From Saccostrea echinata (lineage: Eukaryota), in NCBI RefSeq assembly GCF_033153115.1, contig NW_026889803.1, forward strand, positions 14,632,001-14,696,000: a stretch of DNA of 64,000 bases, written 5' to 3'. Below, one piece after another: positions 24,576 to 55,582 of this stretch. The notes under the pieces are model-generated. The model was given only the letters and a program-made list of their open reading frames with translations. It was not told the DNA's origin and did not search any database. Made by a program: the position numbers and the translations under genes. Numbering within the stretch: position 1 is the first letter of the stretch; every line of letters starts with the position of its first letter.

Positions 24576-24929
24576 TTAAAAATCTGAAATTTAAATTTTA
24601 AAGTCAACTGCTACCATAGCTATATTCAGTAGACAGATTCATACACGCAATCAAAAATTGGCACAGTTTTTAAGTCTCAACACAATTTCCCCAACATGAA
24701 CTAGCTAGCATAAATTGATTAGATTGTATTATTTTTATACAAACATATATTCAAGTGTAAGGTGAGTACATAAATTAAGATCTATTATCTATTAGCTAAC
24801 AATAAAAGTGCTAAAAATGGTGCAAGTGCACAGTCTTTATATAATTTATAAAGAAGTAAAGGATTAAGATTGAATTGTATTAAAGTGTTTTAATTCTTAC
24901 TGTTTTTTTAGCTACTGTGTCTATTTCTA

Positions 24930-26584
24930 ATGGAAATAGCAACACAAATTCTTGGTCAAGGTGTGTTCATCAATCCAGTCAATATTAATGGCTCAGTGAA
25001 GGTAGAATTTGTCGAGTTTGAACAGCCATTGGATTTTGACATCCATGACGAGTCCATGTTTGCTACCTCAGATCCTAGGTTTGAGTTTCCCCTGACAGAG
25101 GCAGATGTCACATGGCTGAACTCTCTGTTCACGCTGCCAGAGCAAGGCGAGACAAGAGTGAGGAAGGAATATCGTCTTCTGACTGAGGAGGAGAGGAATA
25201 ACTTCCATACTGCCATAAATATGCTGAAGAATGACTCTGTGAGTACCATACAAATTAAACTCTGCCACTTGTCATCACTTGCTGTGTCTGTCTTGTTGGA
25301 ATGAAAATGACCTTAAACTTTCAAAGATGTCAGAGTCAAAATGTTAATTCATTGCTTTTTAAATTTTCTGCAGACGGTGAGCCTGAATAAGTATGACCTG
25401 CTGGCCAATATTCATTCCAGATCCTCCAGTAACACAGCCGCTCATGGAGGACCTGGATTCCTAGGCTGGCACAGGGTCTTCCTATTATTGTAAGCGAATT
25501 TATTTACATGCTTATTACCACATCATTTTTTAACATATAAAAAAATCATTGCTTTATGTCCATAAATGGTGTGAACCTTCATGTTTGCAATTTCCTAAGA
25601 TTTTGTAATTTCAGATTTGAGAATGCCTTGAGACAGAAGATTCGAACAGTAACTTTACCTTACTGGGACTGCACCTTAGATCAGCCCCTCCCCCACCCGT
25701 CACAGTCTGTGATTTGGTCCCACTTATTTCTTGGTAATGGAAATGGACAAGTTAAAACTGGACCCTTCAGAAACTGGGACACTCAGTTTGGTTTTGGCCT
25801 GCTACATCGTCAAGTGTCTTCCCTCAGGCATCTCATGAGTGCTAATGATCTGAAAAACATCCTAGAGGAAGAGTACCTTGGAAATATCAGTTATCCTGAC
25901 ACAAAGTCAAGCAAAAATCTTGAACAGCTACATAATAATGTTCATGTTTGGGTTGGTGGACTGATGAGGAAGATAGAAATAGGTGCATTTGATCCAGTTT
26001 TCTATGTCCTTCATAGCTTTGTTGACAAAGTGTGGGAAGATTTTCGAATACACCAGAGGTCAAAGGGCATTGACCCCACAAAAGATTACCCAGAATTCTA
26101 TGGTAGGAGGAACCATGCCCCATTTGCTCCAATGGGATTAGGAAACATTATGGTGATTGATGGAATTAGCAACATTTGGAATGAAAATATTATGCATCTT
26201 CAACCTTCATGTGGAAATAATTCTACAAATGCATGTGGATCTAAGTTTTTGAAGTGTGGCCTTTCAATTGAGAGATGTGTATCTAAAACAATAGATGAAA
26301 TGCTGGAATATAAAGACATTGATAAAATCAAAGATTCAGTTGAGGCTAAACCAGAAACAAAATTCATCAGCTCTTCTACATTTAAATCAAATAATCTTTA
26401 CAGACAAACCTTTTTACAGAGCAATCATCTCAGCCAAATCTATGATAATTTCTCTCTATACAATGATGGAAATCAAATGGATTTGTATAGTGATACCTTA
26501 TATCTGCATTTATTCCCAGACATAGAACACAGTGCTATTCAAAAAGCCAAAGAAATATACACACAACATTTGAAATCAACTTGA
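24930..26584 (+). CDS. Tyrosinase-like type-3 copper protein (molluscan type), ~464 aa from the ATG at 24930; N-terminus uncertain
   Basis: Exons 24930(acceptor 24912)-25238, 25374-25489 and 25615-26584. Motifs RVRKEYRLLT; CuA IHS...AHGGPGFLGWHR; LPYWD; CuB HNNVHVWVGG...FDPVFYVLHSFVDKVW; Cys cluster PSCG..CGSKFLKC...CVSK. Confidence 0.92.
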
Positions 26585-28308: not shown

Positions 28309-31300
28309 CTAGTCCTTGTACTCTAGTTCTGGTGCACTGAAAAGCTCTTGAGCCACCTCTGTATTCTGACGTACAAACAGTGTGATGCCTGCCTTGTAGG
28401 CTGCTGGGATTGCGATGTGAGAAGTCAGCTGGGCACGGTAATGGGTGGGCTGTTGGTACATGGCAGTACAGGCCTCTCGCAACACATTCACTACCTGACC
28501 TAGAATAATTATAATTGAATAAGGACACCATTAGTATATTGACAAATTATACTCTTAAAGTGACCATGTCATAATATCATGTTGAAGTTACATTTATACA
28601 TGTATTTACATCCACTGGATATTTTCTCCTTTATTTCTTGTGAAAAGCGATAGCCTTTAAAAATATACTATTCAGGACTGTTTTTCTTTTAAAATCCATC
28701 CAATAGATTTTTAAAGAATTTAACTCTTCCATTATGTTATGTACTTTCACCCATTTTATACAAATAATCTATGCTTATTTAACAAAGATGTTTGTGAAAC
28801 ACTTATGCCCCCCCCCCCCCCCCCCCCCAATAATTGGAATTTTTATAAGTCCAAGGGGCATAGCTCTGTCAAAAATTGCTCGATTGTACCCAAAACAGAA
28901 TATGAACTAAATATTTTTATGATAAATCTGTATACCAAATTTCATATCAATATGTGCAATCTCTGCAAAGAAAATGAGCGGAAACTGCAAATAATTGGAA
29001 TTTTTCTATGTCCAAGGTGCATAACTCTGTCAAAAATTGCTCTATTGTACCCAAAACATAACTTCACCTAGATATACTTCTGATAAATCTGTACACCAAA
29101 TTTCATTTCAATATTTGCAACCTCTGTGAAGAAAATGAACGAAAACTGCAAATAATTGGAATTTTTCTAAGTCCAAGGGGCATAACTCTGTCAAAAATTG
29201 CTCTATTGTACCCAAAACAGAAGTTGATCTAGATATTCTTATGATAAATCTGTATACCAAATTTCATTTTAATATGTGCAACCTCTGCGAAGAAAATGAA
29301 AGGCAACTGTTGGTGGACTGACAGACAGACAAACAGCAGCAAAGCAATATGCCCTCCCTTCGAGGGGGGCATAAATATAATTCTTAGTTTGTTAATGCAG
29401 GGATATTGCTTCCGAGGGCTATATATTTTTTCTGCAATGTTGCAACCGTTATCCCCGCAACCAAGCAGAACATTTTAAATTCAAATCAATAAGTACCTAA
29501 AACATTCATTTCATTCCATCTCTTGTCAATCTTGGTAATAAGATCATTTAGTGGTGACCAGTCACGGAATCTATTGACCACATCTTGCCGTCGAATTAAG
29601 AGGATGGAGTCACTTGTTAGCTGTTCCATAATCGTCTCTTCAGAAACTATTTCTAATGGATTTGTCAAATACACACCTAAAAAAAGAGTAAAAATGCTCT
29701 GAAATCAATTTTTTTTTTAGAAAAGAAATGAATGCTGTTTTCTAAAAATAGTAAAGTGCATTTGCAAAGGAACATGTAAGTAATATTTAAAATGAAAAAT
29801 CTGATATAATACATGTATAAATTTTTATATAACTGGTTTGCTGAGAAACAGCTAAGAGATTCTATCTCTAAACCTTTTGTACCTTTGGAGCTGACACCGT
29901 AAATCATCTGGTGATGCCAGGCATCAGGAATGGTCCAACCAGGTTTCACTCCCCTCTGTAAATTCAATGTTGCTATGGGAACAGCACCTAATAGAAATTA
30001 AGTATGGATATTTATACAGAGATCTTCATGCATGTTCATGTATGATGTGAAGTATGATCAACATTTTTGTAGTTGTTTTTTTTTCAGTTTAGTACTTACA
30101 ATTACACATACAAGCAAATTTCTAATTAAATTGCTTAAAATTGAGTGGCATGATGGCGACAATATAAATTTCACATTACCTTTCTTTATCCAACCTCCCA
30201 GCCACTTGAGGAGTTCCACTTTCCTGGCTGGAAAAAAGTGGAAAAATCGACCCTGTATGGTACCCCTTGTCAGATTGTGAACACCATCAATCAACTGTAG
30301 TGCAGTTGTACCTAAAAATATTACAAATAAAAATAAATAATTCAACTTCTATTTCATTTCTTAAAACATCTCTACTGAAGCAAAATACATGCAACTTTTT
30401 CTCCTTAGTCTGATTTTCTATTCCATTATTTATTTGTTTACTTGAAGATTGCTTAAATCAAACAAGAAGTATAAAAGTGTACACATACTTTAAAGTCAAC
30501 AGATTTTGTTAATAATAATCTCAATGTACTTTCAATTTATATCTTGTTATTGTCAATTAATTACTTTCATAGCAGAATCTTGAAAGACACTTATACATGT
30601 AAATGATTTTACCTGCCACAGATCTAGAAAACAAATAGTAGCTGATAGGAGCTGTTTCCATTCTGGTGTTGGTAACAATCTTTTTACTAACTTCCTCCTT
30701 ATCAACTTGATAATCAAAGGCTTTCTGTAAATGAAAGGTTGAAAAGAACTCTCACCTTAGTAATGAATAACTCAATTTTTTTTACCTCCTTTTGAAGAGT
30801 TCCACTTTATACATTTCTACGTATTTTTGACAAATTTAGGACTTTTTCGAAATTTTCCATAGAATAAAATATTCAATAAAATCTATTTAACAACATGATG
30901 TGCTCAAAGCAATTGATGTTTCAAAAGAATTCAAGAAATTACTAAATGTCTTTTCACAGAAAAGCACGGAAAAGAAATCTCCAGCAAACACTTATAATTT
31001 GCTTGACATGATTCAGTTTGTGTTGTTTTTTTTTATTTTAATATGTTTTGCATATTTCTTCCCATACATGTAGTTCACAGCAATATTTGAAAACAAAAAA
31101 ATTCAAATACGCTTTATCTATCCATCTATCCGTAATATACATCCATTCAAATATACATGTACATACACTTAAGTATCAAGGCAGTGAAGCGATCTCTAGT
31201 TTCCTTTGGTAATCTTCTAGAAGCAAAATTTCTTGCTTACATATATACGTATCCTTAAATCTAGATCATTAAACTAATTTTTTTTTTAATTTTTCTCCAA

Positions 31301-34300
31301 AACAACCCATTTTTTCCATTTTTAAGTTCACATAACATGCTGTATCCTCCTCTTCAGTGTGTAATGTATTGGTACATGTGTACCAGTATTTATGATTTAC
31401 TCACCAGAACCGTTAACACTGCTGTAGGTCCACACGCTGATGTTCCGATCTGTTTCACCTGTAGCAGGTAGGCCTCGTACTCGTGCCATATCATCACCTT
31501 TTCCACATCAACTGGCCGACGTCCACGTCTACGTCGCCTGTCAAACTTACACATCACCTACAACAAACATAAACTAAACCTTAATTCATTTTTGTCAGTC
31601 AACATCTTCTTAACGTTTAACAATAAATTATTTTTGATAATCACTTAACATAGTGCAAATGGACAAAATAAAAATTATCATGAGGAGATTTGGCCCAAGT
31701 GCTCACCTGAGCTGCCTTGATCATTTAAAGAAAAAAAAATCTCTAACCCTATTAATCTCTAAAATATGAGTCCCTAATAAAGATCTAATAGTCTACAGAT
31801 GTTCACAAATCCAATTCTCAATTTGAAAAATTAGAGCTTTCTGTTCATCAAGGGAAAAATACATGTATTTTGATACCTTTCTCTATTCTATTCCTTTAAA
31901 ATATTTGAATCTATACGTATAACAAAAAACAAGGTTTACAATTCAGATTTGTTTTATGTCATCTCCTGTGGTTTTATAAAATGAGGTACTGAGTCATTTC
32001 ACTATATTATCATTATTTCATACCAAGTTGATGCATAGCAAATTGATGCAAAACTCCACTTTTTAAAACATTAAATGCAGACTTCATCTGTCCAATGACT
32101 TTCTAAGTGATTTTTTTCAAATAGATCATTCCAGTAGTTTAAAGGATGCCAAAAAAGTGGAAATTGTGGCTTATTTACATGTACTTTTACCAGATATACT
32201 CTGTTGGGCTATTAAACCCTTCTTTGTTGAAAACTTTATCAAGTTAGATTTTTCACCTTAGAATTATTATCACAGGAGTTTTCTTCTTGTACTGCATGTA
32301 GGTTATCTAAGCATGACAAAGATGTCTCCAGACTGTCTATATCTTCATAGATAGGATCCTCTGAGCTCTCCCTACAATTATAGCAGATAATGAAATATTT
32401 GCATAATAATCAAGATTAAACAAGGAAACATGAATCCATATTACATATTTGTGTAGTGTATATAATTAAATTTTGTGATTATTTTAAATACATTTCATAA
32501 ATACAATGTTATGATCAATGAATATAGTGCATCTGGTAACAGGGATGGGGTAATCGTAATCGAGTAATGGTAATCGATTGTAATGATTACTTTTTTTCAA
32601 GTAATCGACAGTAATCTGTAATCGAAGAGATTTTCAATTACTTGTAATCGTAATTTAATCGATTACAGCTAAAATTTTCAATGTAATTATAATTACTTTT
32701 TCGATTACCTTCAATTATTTTTTAACATAAATAGATGTTATTTTGGAGAACTCTTTCCAGTCAGTCCCACATAAATATCAAATATAAACCACCTAGTGTA
32801 ATGTTTGGATTTCCTAACTTTTATTATCACAAGTTTAATAATTTTCTCAATAAAATTTGCATTATAGACCTTCTGGTCTAGTATTAAATAATTCAGAAGT
32901 GTATTTCAACCATTTATTAATAAAATATACAGATTTTTCATGTGCATTTTACATTTGACCCATTGTCCTCTTCCTGCATGTCCTTTTTCATATTTCAGAT
33001 GTTGAAAAACTTTGTCTTGTAATAGAAAATTATAAATAGCAAAAACAGATTTAAGTGTTGTATTAAATATAAATAATTTGGTGAATAAACTACATTGTAC
33101 TCGAAAAAAAAAGAAGATGGAAATACTTATTCATATCTGAAAATGTTTAAACAACTTCAAACTTGTGTTTTACTAACTTTAAAATTTGCAAAATCATTCT
33201 CATGTTTTCATTCAAAATTGTAAGGTTGCTTTTATATCAGTGAGAGGTTATAAGTGTCTGTAAGAGAGGGAGAGTGTCACTGTGTTTGCTCATCTTAATT
33301 GGCTAATTAATTGACTGAGACACCTTGATTTGCAGATAATGAGGTGTAAACTGTGAACTACCTAGTGTTTAACTTTCATTCCATTGAAGACAAACAGTAT
33401 TATTAAAACAATTAATAGCTCTCAAAACACTTATTTCAATACAGAATGAAATTGTTTGAAAAAGACACGTACAGGAATGTTTCATGTGTACTGTCAACAT
33501 ACGGGCAGCCCAAATACTTCCAATGAAGTAATTCACAATAAAATATTAAATATTTTTTGCAACAAGTCAATAAATATGGAAGTTCAGATCCAAAGTTGAA
33601 AGGAATAATTAATTCCTTGGCATATCATGTCTCCACTTTCCATGGTACAGAATCCCTCAATTGGGCATTTAGTGAAAATGTTAGCCAGAATAAAACCTTA
33701 AAAGAATCTGCTCTGAAACTTCAGGAACACATTCAAACTTCAGTGGATAACATCAACATGTACCATTTAAATATTGCTTTGATATTTGAAGGGATAAAAA
33801 CTTGGAAGTAATCGATTATTAATTGATTACATCTTCGAAAGTAATCGATTACAGGACAAAAATGAGTGTAATTGATTAATAATCGATTACACAAAATTCC
33901 TCAAAGTAATCGATTATTAATCGATTACATTTTTCAGTAATCGTGCTCATCCCTGTCTGGTAATTTGTCTTACCCAGGGCTCGAGCTGTGATTTGCCATT
34001 TGCGCCAATTGCGAATTTTTTCCAAAAGTGGCGAAAAGAAATTCAAAAGTGGCGAAAATGGATATTTTTTTTTAGATATACCATACAAAAGTGTGTGTAC
34101 TCCTGGCTATCTCCTTTGTTTATTCAATGTATACAGATTATCCCCTTTGTTTATTTAATGCAAGCAAACGTGTGAATTCAGGGTGTGAAAACTCCATGAA
34201 ACTTACAAAACAATGTACAGGTAGGAAATCATGTCTCACTTGAATGCACACAGCTGACTAGGTTAATTTAGCCTGGAGCAGTGAGGGGATACAAAATTAC

Positions 34301-37277
34301 TTGAAATAATATAAGATGGATTAAACAAGGAAAGACAAAGTGTTTTTGGGAGATGAAGTCAGTTAATAAAAGATTTTTATCAATAAAATCTGGATCTATA
34401 TAGATTGTTTTTTAAAACAGAAAGTAGGAAAACATGACGAAAATTGCAGAGCATGGCTGCTAATTTTACCTGATTAAAGACTTAAAAGTCAAAATAGTGT
34501 GTTCATTATACCATAAACTGACAAAGAGTGAAAGATACTGGCTTGGAAACAATACAATACTTTTGTCAAATACGCTGAATTATTTTCAGTTATATGAATT
34601 TACATGCATACACCAAGTGTCCAAACTGTTAAAGTAAGCCAAGTTTTAAACCTGATTTTCATTACCTCTTTTCACACTAAATTGTTGATATGATTAAAAT
34701 TTTCAATTACATTATTTTTTTTCAATTTAAAAAAATGTCATATATCTTACTAAGTCTGTAACCCCCCTCCCAGGGCTAAAAAAATGTTATGAACAAGAGG
34801 GCATCTACTTTCAAGAGTTGGCTAATATCAGTATCAAATTAAATGTATAAATAATTCCTAATATATTAGTTTTGTAAGTGGATAAAACGTTAAATTTTAT
34901 AATTTTAAAACAATGCCTGTGATATAAACAAATTGAAATAGTGCTATTAGTGGAGTGTTTAGCATGTATACACTTGTCGAGACGAGATGTAAGAATGCGA
35001 TTCCTTTCATCGCGAAAAGTGGCGAAAAATATTTTCGCTCCAGTGGGAGCTCTGGTCTTACCCTGAGGATTCATCCAGTTTATTTGGTAAAGGCATGATG
35101 ACTGCATTTCTAACAGCATGTGTTGGATTCTCCAAATCTTCAAGTACCATACAATGTCCATTTTCGAGAGGATAATGTCCTAACTGCACATTACCTAGAT
35201 GTTCTCGTCTGAGACGGAAACTTAAGTTTTCCTCCTCATCAGATGAATCACAGTGAGCCGTAGACCTATTTTCTTTTTCCAATGCTTTAAAAAACACCTT
35301 CTCTTGCCTATTGCTCTCAGAATTCTGAAAGTTGGCTTGCAAGACTTTTTCATGCTTATATGTATCCAGGTAGTTAAAATGTTCATTATCATCCACACAG
35401 AGATGAGGATCATAAGACTCCATATTGCACTCTACATCATCAAACTCAAATGAATGTCTTCTCATGCTCAGATCATTTGTCATTCCTCCTTCAGCACCAC
35501 GTAAGTCATTCGAAGCATAATCCAGTGGATCGTACATACAAAACTCCGATGAATTCCTCTCACCATTTCTTTGGTGTAAAATACTAGGACTGTCTAGATC
35601 TTGACTGAAGCGGAACATTGGTTGCAAACTTGTTGCAGATGTTGGCACATCTGATTCAACAGAATCCAAAAAATCAGTTTCCGGTGAGTACATGAAAGAA
35701 GAATCTGAGCCAGGCTTCTCACTGCTGTCTCCACCATTTTTAGCAATATATTTGGGTCTACAGACATGTGCATTATTATATGATTGGTTTTCCATGTCAT
35801 ACATGTATCTTAAATTTGCAGTAATATCAGCAAAGGAGTCTGAGTGAGGTGTTTCTACATCATCACATGGAGGGGCAGGTGAGACAGCAGGGATACTTTG
35901 TTTTCTGAACTCCTGGAGGTTCTGGCAAGATAGTGGACTATGGATGTCATTTTCTTGGTGTACTCCATTTTCTTGGTTATGATGAGATGGACTTGAGGGA
36001 GTCCCTTTTGCTTCTGCATCATGAGAATCTTTTTCTTGATTCACACCATAACCCTCATCTTCCTCACTGGATGTAGAAGAATGTTCTGAACTAGATGCAA
36101 ACATGTGACGACTAGCCCGAGATGGAAAATCTGTTTCTATGTAGTCTCCAATCTCATCTAAACTTTCAGAACTAGATGGTGCTGTTGCCTCCTCTACCAA
36201 TATATCACCTCTGTTTTCCTGGATTTCTGAGGAATTGTCTTCATCTGCAATTTCTTCAAGACTTTCTGAACTAGATAAATGTGTAAAAACTTCTTCTACT
36301 TGTTCCTCTACTTCGAGCATGTCTTCTCCTATTATACCTTGTTCATCATCACTAGTTTTGTTTTCATGCTGACTTTCATTAGCAGTTGTCTGATTTTCTG
36401 TAGTCACTGTCGCAGTTTCTTTATCATTTAAATCACAACCAGAATTTTGGGAAGACCCATCACTGTCTTCTGGCACTGCTAAAGGGGCAGATATTGTTAT
36501 GTCTTCAAACCTAGCAGGCAAATTGATATTTTGAACTTGTTCATGATGTCCATTTGTGAAACAAACTTGTTCATTTGTTGTGCAGGGTACATTTGGCTGA
36601 GAATGAAAGCTCCTATTTCTAGATGAGTATTCCTTGTCATCACCATCAGATTCTGTAGAAGATCCAACATCATGTCTATGGAATTCTAATTTATCTGGAG
36701 AGCTAAAGCAATCACAGGAATCATCTGAACTTGAACCAAGTTCTGGATAAATGTATTTTTCTCTCTTTGAATTTGATCCTGCTTTCTTCTCTTGCTCTCT
36801 TCGATCTCGTCTCTGTTTGACAACACGACTCCATGACATAGACTTGGGTCTGTTTGCCTTAGGTGAATTTTTCCTGTTCTGTAAACCATTTACTAGCAGT
36901 GGTTTGACATATTCACTACAGTGATTACAGTTTACGACTACTTCAGGACGAGCTAGAGCACTGACCTCCCCTTGGCAGCTAATATTAGCAAGAGATGATC
37001 TTGAGTTTTCCGTGTCTTCATGCAAAAATCCATTTATAGGTCCATTTAAATTGGGACTACTACCATTGACTAAATTAATTCGACCCTCTCTGTAAAGACC
37101 TGAGCCATTATTTTTTTCTTTTTGGTTTTCAGATGAATCTGGAGATGACTTTTCATTTTCACTGGAGTGCTGACTCACTGGACTCTGTGCTCCATTCTGG
37201 CATGTATATTCTGAAGATTTCTTATTAGTTGTTGGCATGTTGTTTTCTTTCCGAACATCATGTCTACTTTTACTCAT
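28309..37277 (-). CDS. Uncharacterised ~1067-aa protein: long Ser/Glu/Asp-rich N-terminus plus a C-terminal papain/peptidase-C39-like domain
   Basis: 8 GT-AG exons in phase: 37277-35062, 32371-32257, 31557-31405, 30724-30613, 30311-30180, 29987-29883, 29676-29497, 28499-28309 (3204 nt, TAG stop). Motifs QIGTSACGPTAVLTVL, DAWHHQMIYGV and VYLTNP. The gene structure is well supported; the fold assignment is inference. Confidence 0.8.
28781..29374 (+). mobile_element. Helentron/HINE-type element with a central 3 x 161-bp array
   Basis: Start AACAAAGATGTTTGTGAAACACTTATGCCCCC. Units AATAATTGGAATTTTT at 28829, 28990 and 29151. GACA microsatellite. Terminal palindrome ATGCCCTCCCTTCGAGGGGGGCAT. Confidence 0.8.
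32540..33955. mobile_element. Non-autonomous hAT-like DNA transposon
   Basis: TIR CAGGGATG...CATCCCTG. Exact 8-bp TSD TCTGGTAA (32532-32539, 33956-33963). Dense GTAATCGATTAC subterminal palindromes. Confidence 0.9.
33975..35054. mobile_element. Non-autonomous DNA transposon with an 8-bp TSD (hAT- or P-like)
   Basis: TIR CAGGGCTC...GAGCTCTG. Exact TSD GTCTTACC (33967-33974, 35055-35062). Subterminal AAAGTGGCGAAAA repeats. Confidence 0.88.
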
Positions 37278-37601
37278 ATTTGGGGATACATCCTATCAAT
37301 CCTTTACCTGCTTTTACTATCAGCGCCATCATCCTAAAATACGGAGAAACTAAAATATTACATTTCTAATATGATTATTTAATTGTTAGAACTTCGTTGG
37401 GATACAACGAATATAATACAAAAGAAAACCACAAAAAAACATGACAAAAATAATAAAATGTCAAACTTTGACGTTTTCAGAAAATGGGGTGGGATTTCTT
37501 ATCCAAAGATATGGAATATAGAATGTAATTTTTATAGATCTAATTTCTCTGGTAAATATTCTTAACCTTCCGCTTGAAAAGAAATTCATTATAATCCTTA
37601 C

Positions 37602-38030
37602 CTGTTACTCAGGTGCGAAAAATTTAACTCTTTTCTGTTTGTTTCATCTGGGACAACTTTCTTCCGCCATATTGAATCAAAATACACTTTAAACTCCTCT
37701 AGTTTCGAGTATACAACTAAGTGGAATAACTTGAAGGAGTTCCGAATTCATAATTTTATGGAATCCCAAAAATGGGCCAATCAGCATTCTCGTAACAAAG
37801 GCGATTGACAGATATTATCCACAATGTGATGTGTGAAAGCTGCAATCTCTTCCTAAACTGAAAGAAATCACTTATCATGTTGGGTACTGTAAGTTTAAGA
37901 TCATATTGTTGGATAATTATTCCCAAATCGCTATACATTTTCTTTGAACAGTGCGCTTCCGACTGTTAATTTACAAATAATTACTCCATTTTGATAACAA
38001 TCCCTAGCTTTGTAGCTCTTGGTAAGCTAT
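37602..38030. promoter_or_regulatory. Probable bidirectional promoter and first non-coding exons of the C39-like gene (-) and MBTPS1 (+)
   Basis: Minus-strand donor CAG|GTAAGG at 37602/37601, with a YY1-like AATATGGCGG upstream (~37664-37673). CCAAT box GGCCAATCAG at ~37775. Plus-strand donor TG|GTAAGC at 38021/38022. Acceptors at 37333 (-) and 39516 (+). Confidence 0.5.

Positions 38031-39655: not shown

Positions 39656-55582
<15,927 letters not shown>

Follow-up and report, generated by a model that had tools for sequence, protein, structure and literature searches.

What does an oyster gene that is broken into small exons encode, and what might its product act on? The question is raised by a window of 64,000 nucleotides from Saccostrea echinata (NCBI RefSeq assembly GCF_033153115.1, contig NW_026889803.1, positions 14,632,001 to 14,696,000 of the forward strand; coordinates below are those of the window), in which a preliminary description, made from the letters alone, had spliced six minus-strand exons into a candidate papain/C39-like cysteine hydrolase. 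Here we report that these exons encode the C-terminal domain of a 1067-residue protein and that the domain defines a single-copy family which is no oyster oddity but is spread across eukaryotes. Our leading reading, to which we give a probability of roughly 0.4, is that the protein is a predicted intracellular hydrolase that would clip an N-acylated residue or a short group from the end of one conserved protein target.

The six exons are present as described: they have GT-AG ends, splice in frame into 290 amino acids up to the stop codon at 28311-28309, and carry the motif residues at the positions claimed for them (Gln 31452-31450, Cys 31434-31432, His-His 29916-29911, Asn 29662-29660). Two points needed correction. 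Position 31557, given as the start of the gene, is an exon edge that two further coding exons precede, and the gene, although indeed hidden from the open-reading-frame track, is already annotated in RefSeq as uncharacterized. The full gene comprises eight coding exons on the minus strand with the first in-frame ATG at 37277, and its spliced product is letter-for-letter XP_061198047.1, 'uncharacterized protein LOC133206133' (Saccostrea echinata). The exons of the gene, in the order of transcription, are as follows.

37602..37692, minus strand: 5' untranslated first exon, minimum extent; its joint 37332/37601 was found in 3/3 runs checked for it, and one contig extends to 37692.
35062..37333, minus strand: large exon with the ATG at 37277, residues 1-738 of an acidic, Ser-rich, disordered tail (splicing, RefSeq identity, transcript joints).
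32257..32371 (115 bp), minus strand: small coding exon, residues 739-777 (splicing, transcript joints).
31405..31557, minus strand: exon with a basic stretch, the oxyanion Gln813 and the predicted catalytic Cys819, which opens the central helix (splicing, model, conservation).
30613..30724, minus strand: exon for a family-specific insert preceding the G-T-T helix, with Arg849 (30664-30662), Tyr858 and Arg862 (30625-30623) (conservation; model helix 77-86).
30180..30311, minus strand: exon for the G-T-T helix, the first core strand and a W-L-x-x-W helix (splicing, model).
29883..29987, minus strand: exon for the end of the N-x-Q strand and the D-x-W-H-H-Q-M strand, with His934 (29916-29914, predicted catalytic) and His935 (29913-29911) (conservation).
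29497..29676, minus strand: exon with the third triad residue, Asn950 (29662-29660), and the start of the second family-specific insert (conservation; one genome match).
28309..28499, minus strand: last coding exon, with an I-P-A-x-Y-x-x-G segment, the last core strand and the stop (model, transcripts; Pro1036 in 316/316).

All seven coding introns, whose junctions the preliminary description had wanted confirmed, are joined by transcript-type contigs from four sequencing runs (at most three samples, three studies), one of which is on record as RNA and three of which are presumed to be RNA, for which joints at GT-AG ends argue. Six introns are joined in 4/4 runs and the seventh (30724/31405) in 3/4, the fourth run carrying seven other letters between the two exons. 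The 3' untranslated part extends to 27400 or beyond. Two exons searched in the 923-Mb oyster genome gave one match each, and the gene is single copy there.

Does the spliced domain adopt the proposed fold? An AlphaFold2 model of the last ~280 residues, built from an 85-row alignment, has a mean predicted local distance difference test score (pLDDT) of 93.7 and a predicted template modelling score of 0.90, and its comparison with solved structures bears out the claim of a papain/C39-like fold, with a papain core near the C39 peptidases, the phytochelatin synthase (PCS) Alr0975 and PeiR. The predicted catalytic Cys (Cys41 in domain numbering) opens helix 41-52 and thus stands at the N-terminal end of the central helix. 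Foldseek returned seven matches at E <= 0.001, five of them C39 rows and two CdiA-CT rows, with PCS next, and a wider structural aligner found 51 solved chains at Z >= 8, the rows listed being papain-fold. Here the top rows are tied within about 1 Z: an entry titled 'P210 CD lyase' (PDB 22oc; Z 16.5, root-mean-square deviation 2.9, 165 residues aligned), PeiR (Z 16.3, 2.1, 143), Alr0975 (Z 15.6, 2.8, 162) and C39 peptidase domains (Z 14.8-15.6, 2.1-2.4, 130-134); C39 and C39_2 structures together span Z 13.5-15.6, and staphopain, UfSP, SpeB and cathepsins rank lower. The model thus predicts a member of the papain-like cysteine proteinase superfamily (clan CA fold). By secondary structure the core carries two additions, a loop plus helix at 68-88 and ~75 residues between the helix after the Asn and the last core strand; judged by length, and with the core assigned from the model, both appear to be absent from C39 domains. 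A profile search of PDB sequences gave no match at E <= 10, a viral fold library returned only generic C39-like endolysin-type and unnamed rows, and no solved ACTMAP, GUCD1 or BIVM structure surfaced in the fold searches, which says nothing on the likeness of these proteins.

From 377 search hits we aligned 349 non-identical domains of at least 200 residues, dropping 28 that were shorter or duplicate, and the residues whose invariance had been proposed as a test are near-invariant: the oxyanion Gln813 is kept in 291/305, Cys819 in 300/308, His934 in 339/347, His935 in 341/347, and position 950 is Asn in 336/344 and Asp in 4/344. Of the 302 members that span all four positions, 284 have Gln, Cys, His934 and Asn/Asp intact, and 119/119 fish members retain Cys, His and Asn. 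The residues stand in the canonical order with spacings of 6 (Gln-Cys), 6 (His-Gly) and 16 (His-Asn). The motif by itself is weak evidence, since Q-x5-CG is not rare (five matches in the six frames of the window); it is the fold together with the conservation that makes the case, and we consider an active Cys-His-Asn enzyme very probable. Judging from the alignment, His934, which comes first in the pair, is most probably the catalytic His, because Gly follows at +6, as in oyster PCS, and Asn at +16. This assignment fits the change of His935 to Phe or Tyr in four members, as an aromatic position follows the catalytic His in PCS as well; co-loss cannot decide between the two His residues, because loss of the Cys coincides with loss of either equally often (3/6 each).

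Residues with no expected part in catalysis are as fixed as the triad, namely Arg849 (326/341), Tyr858 (336/343), Arg862 (332/343), Asn918 (346/347), Gln920 (344/347), Asp931, Trp933 (346/347), Gln936, Asp976 and Pro1036, and, besides the start Met, 20 residues are invariant in 24/24 distant members that share 29-48% identity with the first row. That so many non-catalytic positions are fixed like the triad therefore points to one conserved substrate. Among five bivalves the domain is 72-99% identical, as against 24-90% for the tail. The proposed intracellular location is likely to be correct, as a hydrophobic N-terminus occurs in 0/119 fish members and none is present in the oyster protein. 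Seven members without the Cys or the first His (P0309, P0315, P0326, P0330, P0336, P0337 and P0106) are likely dead enzymes; five of them, the arthropod-type P0309, P0315, P0326, P0330 and P0106 (the last from a burying beetle), retain the tail motif described below.

To which named family, if any, does the domain belong? The preliminary description had recognised none, and in agreement with this the domain stays below the cut-off of every Pfam and NCBIfam model. The best Pfam match is Peptidase_C39_2 (PF13529), at 19.6 bits against a cut-off of 24 and over the Cys region only (14-17 bits in others), and Phytochelatin (PF05023) reaches at best 19.5 bits against 24.9, with weak matches at E 6e-4 to 0.16. 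C39 (PF03412) gave no match at E <= 0.1 in 85 members nor at E <= 0.5 in 40 more, GUCD1 (PF09778, Guanylate_cyc_2) and DUF3335 (PF11814) gave none at E <= 0.1 in the 85, NCBIfam found nothing on the peptidase domain in 14 proteins, and the six domain exons run singly against Pfam yielded one chance-level match (E 0.14). Over-cut-off matches mark separate oyster loci for PCS and an ACTMAP-type gene, each on another contig, and for GUCD1. By language-model features (ESM Atlas; two queries, one kind of evidence), three unnamed eukaryotic clusters come first, followed by ACTMAP-like_C, DUF6885, BIVM (only at rank 13), PCS and C39. ACTMAP-like_C is thereby the nearest named family, with scores of 0.94 and 0.95 and 158 and 174 of 256 features shared.

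The family can be set apart from each of these neighbours. With the C39 (PF03412: ComA, PCAT1, LahT-type) and C39_2 (PF13529, PDB 3erv) peptidases it shares the order of the papain core, Q-x5-C-G, the G-T-T helix, a His with Gly at +6, and a third residue at +16 followed by Pro. In contrast to C39, however, it is eukaryotic and free-standing, without an ABC transporter (a scan of 76 long or distant members revealed neither an ABC nor a membrane domain), it has Asn for Asp and a W-H-H-Q strand, and its domain of ~280 residues is about twice as long as the 135-150 of C39 owing to the two family-specific inserts. With PCS (PF05023, C83; Alr0975) it shares a similar Cys helix, a long Cys-to-GxT spacing and the Gly at His+6, but the GHFSP motif, which oyster PCS itself shows, is absent as had been stated, with WHHQM in its place; moreover, Asn stands at +16 rather than Asp at +18 as in oyster PCS, and the family is kept in fish. 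ACTMAP (C19orf54) is an intracellular C39-like cysteine peptidase, as the present protein is predicted to be, and here the likeness is at the level of features only. GUCD1 and DUF3335 belong to the same papain-like group as C39 and PCS: in the accessible part of a 2023 survey of papain-like families, whose starting points are Pfam, MEROPS, COG/KOG, PDB and the human proteins, group 11 unites C39, C39_2, PCS, GUCD1, DUF3335, C47, C70, BtrH_N and DUF6005, and DUF3335 is often fused to GNAT domains (PMC10318531). In the same part of the survey, including the first hits of its 47 KOG mentions, we found no entry that could be tied to the present family (PMC10318531). PeiR and 'P210 CD lyase', although the top structural rows, share 15% identity and no context with it, and their likeness shows only that the fold group performs several chemistries. 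As far as the literature searched extends, with most subscription papers outside its reach, we found no description of the family, its inserts, its range, its link to GNAT domains or its tail motif; fold and chemistry are known.

How widely is the family distributed? A profile search gave 833 representatives at 50% clustering (E <= 0.001). Invertebrate members come from bivalves, a gastropod, an annelid, crustaceans (including a copepod), hemipterans, a beetle, a cockroach, a hemichordate, amphioxus and echinoderms, and there are further ones in a coral (Acropora), a sponge (record Em0001g200a) and the dinoflagellate Polarella; among vertebrates they occur in lamprey, sharks, rays, coelacanth, lungfish, bichir, sturgeon, gar and teleosts, including a perch-like fish. 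Fish members are the bare domain, 262-332 residues long and without a tail, as are the coral, sponge and many protist members. The order of species is loosely recovered in a FastTree of 150 domains, which groups molluscs, insects, echinoderms and vertebrates and has weakly supported deep nodes. For prokaryotes, one or two short exact patterns found no relative in GTDB genomes, a search that distant kin could escape, and short exact patterns likewise found none in viral contigs. In metagenomes 38 loci were found, with annotated neighbours of eukaryote type; the 34 neighbouring open reading frames scanned at 21 of them encode unrelated eukaryote-type genes with no repeat partner.

The family was probably lost in tetrapods, as far as sequence searches can tell. 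The best 120 of 326 hits to a shark query include no credible tetrapod, and every named one among them comes from a fish. Coelacanth and lungfish follow directly after sharks, at the rank at which tetrapods should appear, and no unnamed representative nests beside these two in the tree. A point against the loss is one tilapia cluster that bears the second label 'Mustela putorius', a kind of record that we presume to be mislabelled.

Fusions in protist-type members offer a clue to function. Among the 76 long or distant members, a GNAT domain is fused to the peptidase in three by Pfam and in one more by NCBIfam, closest to RimI and below cut-off. These are 4/30 of the non-animal-type tree rows and fall in three sub-branches. 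Three of them carry the GNAT domain at the N-terminus and one at the C-terminus, with 32% identity between the two forms across 190 residues (E 2e-17). No GNAT fusion was seen among the animal-type members scanned. The recurring GNAT domain is all that context offers as a clue to function, and its basis is metagenome gene calls. The carriers are P0137, P0328 (locus L009), P0348 and P0310; the three copies that are complete share a Y-D-W-H-G-G motif, and this RimI-like subfamily was seen here only fused to the peptidase. One other protist-type member, P0351, is fused to a tubulin-tyrosine-ligase/RimK-like ATP-grasp domain, in a single record on a 2.3-kb contig.

How might such an enzyme work? 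In established papain chemistry, a Cys attacks an amide, an acyl-enzyme forms and water releases the product. By analogy, Cys819 would attack the amide bond, activated by His934, which Asn950 would hold, with Gln813 steadying the oxyanion and water freeing the acyl-enzyme. Judging from the anatomy of the model, the extra helix preceding the G-T-T helix (Arg849, Tyr858, Arg862) and the ~75-residue second insert may close the cleft; the D-x-W-H-H-Q and N-x-Q strands may shape a narrow pocket that suits a single kind of substrate. The fusions suggest that a RimI-like acetyltransferase acts in this route too, either ahead of the cut or following it, and in molluscs and arthropods the disordered tail with its D-[FY]-[IL]-E-x-D-[FL] motif likely targets the enzyme to a partner. 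Trimming of a protein end leads among the readings that we considered because of the fixed pocket, the inserts that would close the cleft, ACTMAP as nearest named family by features and the repeated N-acetyltransferase partner. ACTMAP shares its pathway with an N-terminal acetyltransferase, an arrangement echoed by the GNAT fusions: in the accessible parts of two reports, its Cys132 takes off the acetylated first residue of actin, which NAA80 then re-acetylates (PMC13367750, PMC13557074). A stronger version, a dedicated protein-end editor of one ancient target with its own RimI-like partner, single copy since early eukaryotes and dropped at the land transition, we regard as unlikely.

Several observations weigh against end-trimming. 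ACTMAP-like_C (PF21646) matches none of 85 aligned members at E <= 0.1, and its lead by features is small, the PCS cluster reaching 0.92-0.94 with 154-168 features. The surroundings of the Cys are closer to PCS, with the weak Phytochelatin matches and a Cys-to-GxT spacing of 47, long as in oyster PCS. The top structural row is titled as a lyase, and one or more of the four residues are missing in 18/302 members. A search of the oyster genome with one 110-residue query did not find the fused-form GNAT. In addition, TTL, PhyH, LRR, HDAC, M42 and phosphatase domains occur as single fusions (one each among the 76), and some fusions may be noise or mis-joined gene calls.

The alternative that survives best, though doubtful, is a PCS-like small-peptide enzyme that cuts or transfers part of glutathione, a conjugate or another gamma-glutamyl peptide. 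Alr0975 aligns over 162 residues, as against 130-134 for C39, at the same Z, several members show the weak Phytochelatin matches on the Cys helix, and when its profile was compared locally with that of oyster PCS, the Q-x5-CG helix aligned (probability 10.5%, E 0.003), but the comparison failed past this first helix and left the register of the His unset. The Polarella member also bears a UniRef label that names a PCS. With equal reserve, the two conserved Arg residues, the near-invariant Arg849 and Arg862, might then bind a carboxylate, and the fused acetyltransferase cap the freed amine. This reading has to contend with WHHQM in place of GHFSP, the Asn at +16 rather than an Asp at +18, and a true PCS elsewhere in the oyster. 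Long disordered tails with conserved motifs are more usual in regulated protein-modifying enzymes, which also fits a small-peptide enzyme less well.

Quite unlikely, in our view, is an isopeptidase or tag remover that would cut side-chain amides, for example glycine or glutamate chains on tubulin or a ubiquitin-like tag. PeiR, the second structural row, is an endoisopeptidase, UfSP1/2, ATG4A and ZUP1 appear at Z 9.6-11.7, and the TTL/RimK-like ligase fusion (Pfam E 1.4e-4; NCBIfam E 0.018) would suit such a role, but this fusion is one record on a short contig, and the tails of the long animal-type members within the scanned set of 76 yielded no Pfam domain, ubiquitin-binding or other. Moreover, ATG4/UfSP deconjugases have an Asp-Pro-His box, according to the part of the survey that was accessible (PMC10318531), whereas the present family lacks it, with Asn-Pro-Leu at that place on the third strand and its His on the second. 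Still less probable is a non-proteolytic Cys-His chemistry, such as small-molecule acyl transfer or elimination: the fold group includes 'P210 CD lyase', CtaG (Z 10.3), AziU3 and CcbD (Z 8.3), and fusions with metabolic domains such as PhyH exist, but the close structural neighbours are mostly peptidases, and we found no paper on 'CD lyase' in the literature searched. A mainly binding scaffold with a vestigial triad, which the five arthropod-type members that lost the Cys or His yet kept the tail motif might represent, is highly improbable for the family given the triad and oxyanion Gln in the great majority of members from protists to fish, and all four residues in the oyster.

What would end-trimming, or any activity of this family, mean? 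A conserved and apparently active family of fish, oysters, shrimp, aphids, corals and plankton stands without a name, a Pfam model or a paper that we could find, and it has probably been neglected since humans and the usual model lists seem to be without it. Human relatives in the same fold group remained obscure until screens assigned them jobs, as with ACTMAP on actin. The bare fish version (260-330 residues) is easy to express and to knock out, which makes the substrate question directly testable. If the loss in tetrapods is true, a biochemical route was abandoned at the step from water to land, and if the protein-end editor reading is true, this would be a modification cycle absent from mammals.

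What could the tail contribute? The first ~780 residues of the protein are acidic and Ser-rich, and in a full-length model 754/1067 residues have pLDDT < 50, with one helix at 149-165. Two motifs stand out.

36126..36146, minus strand: conserved motif D-[FY]-[IL]-[ED]-x-D-[FL], residues 378-384 (87/121 long tails; alignment A3).
32338..32355, minus strand: P-I-Y-E-[ED]-I motif, residues 745-750 (19/121 long tails versus 0.02 in shuffles; named carriers all bivalves).

The first, searched as D-[FY]-[ILMV]-E-x-D-[FLY], occurs in 87/121 tails of at least 130 residues as against 0.08 in shuffles and is common to molluscs and arthropods; in alignment A3, 44 hand-picked long protostome-type forms, both Asp and both hydrophobic positions are kept in 43/43 other rows. 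Its conservation suggests that it is likely a docking site for another protein. The second presumably resembles a Src-type phosphotyrosine site. Since fish forms have no tail and the first motif is found in molluscs and arthropods, the tail is likely a protostome addition for targeting or control. Folding back of the first motif on the active site has no backing, as residues 371-390 average a pLDDT of 39-42 in the full-length model, and FFAT, LIR and clathrin-box readings of it were dropped, because the two fixed Asp and the last hydrophobic residue fit none of them. A further tail motif, C-I-Y-T-Y-[KR]-G, is matched loosely in 47/121 long tails (0.32 in shuffles) and is absent from the oyster protein; its carriers are P0028, P0051, P0074, P0106 and other arthropod-type members. 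Just before the domain, 31526-31545 (minus strand) encodes five Arg, Gly and two Arg, a stretch that is also basic in four other bivalves checked and may be a nuclear import signal.

Finally, the surroundings of the gene hold some minor features. Head-to-head with it lies the gene for site-1 protease (MBTPS1), on the plus strand from 37692-37888 onward to about 55580; its first intron begins after 37888 and its first exon takes up at least the preceding ~50 bases. No more than about 150 bases thus separate the first exons of the two genes, which likely share a two-way promoter. Pieces of a PIF/Harbinger-type transposase (DDE_Tnp_4, E 5e-24 and 1e-6) at 45337-46502 (minus strand) fall between MBTPS1 coding exons, likely in an intron of that gene, and a tyrosinase gene (PF00264, E 7e-24) at 24912-26584 (plus strand) converges on the 3' end of the peptidase gene. 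Interspersed repeats occupy 28820-29360 in the last intron and 32540-34260 in the second, and many other contigs map to 28844-29565.

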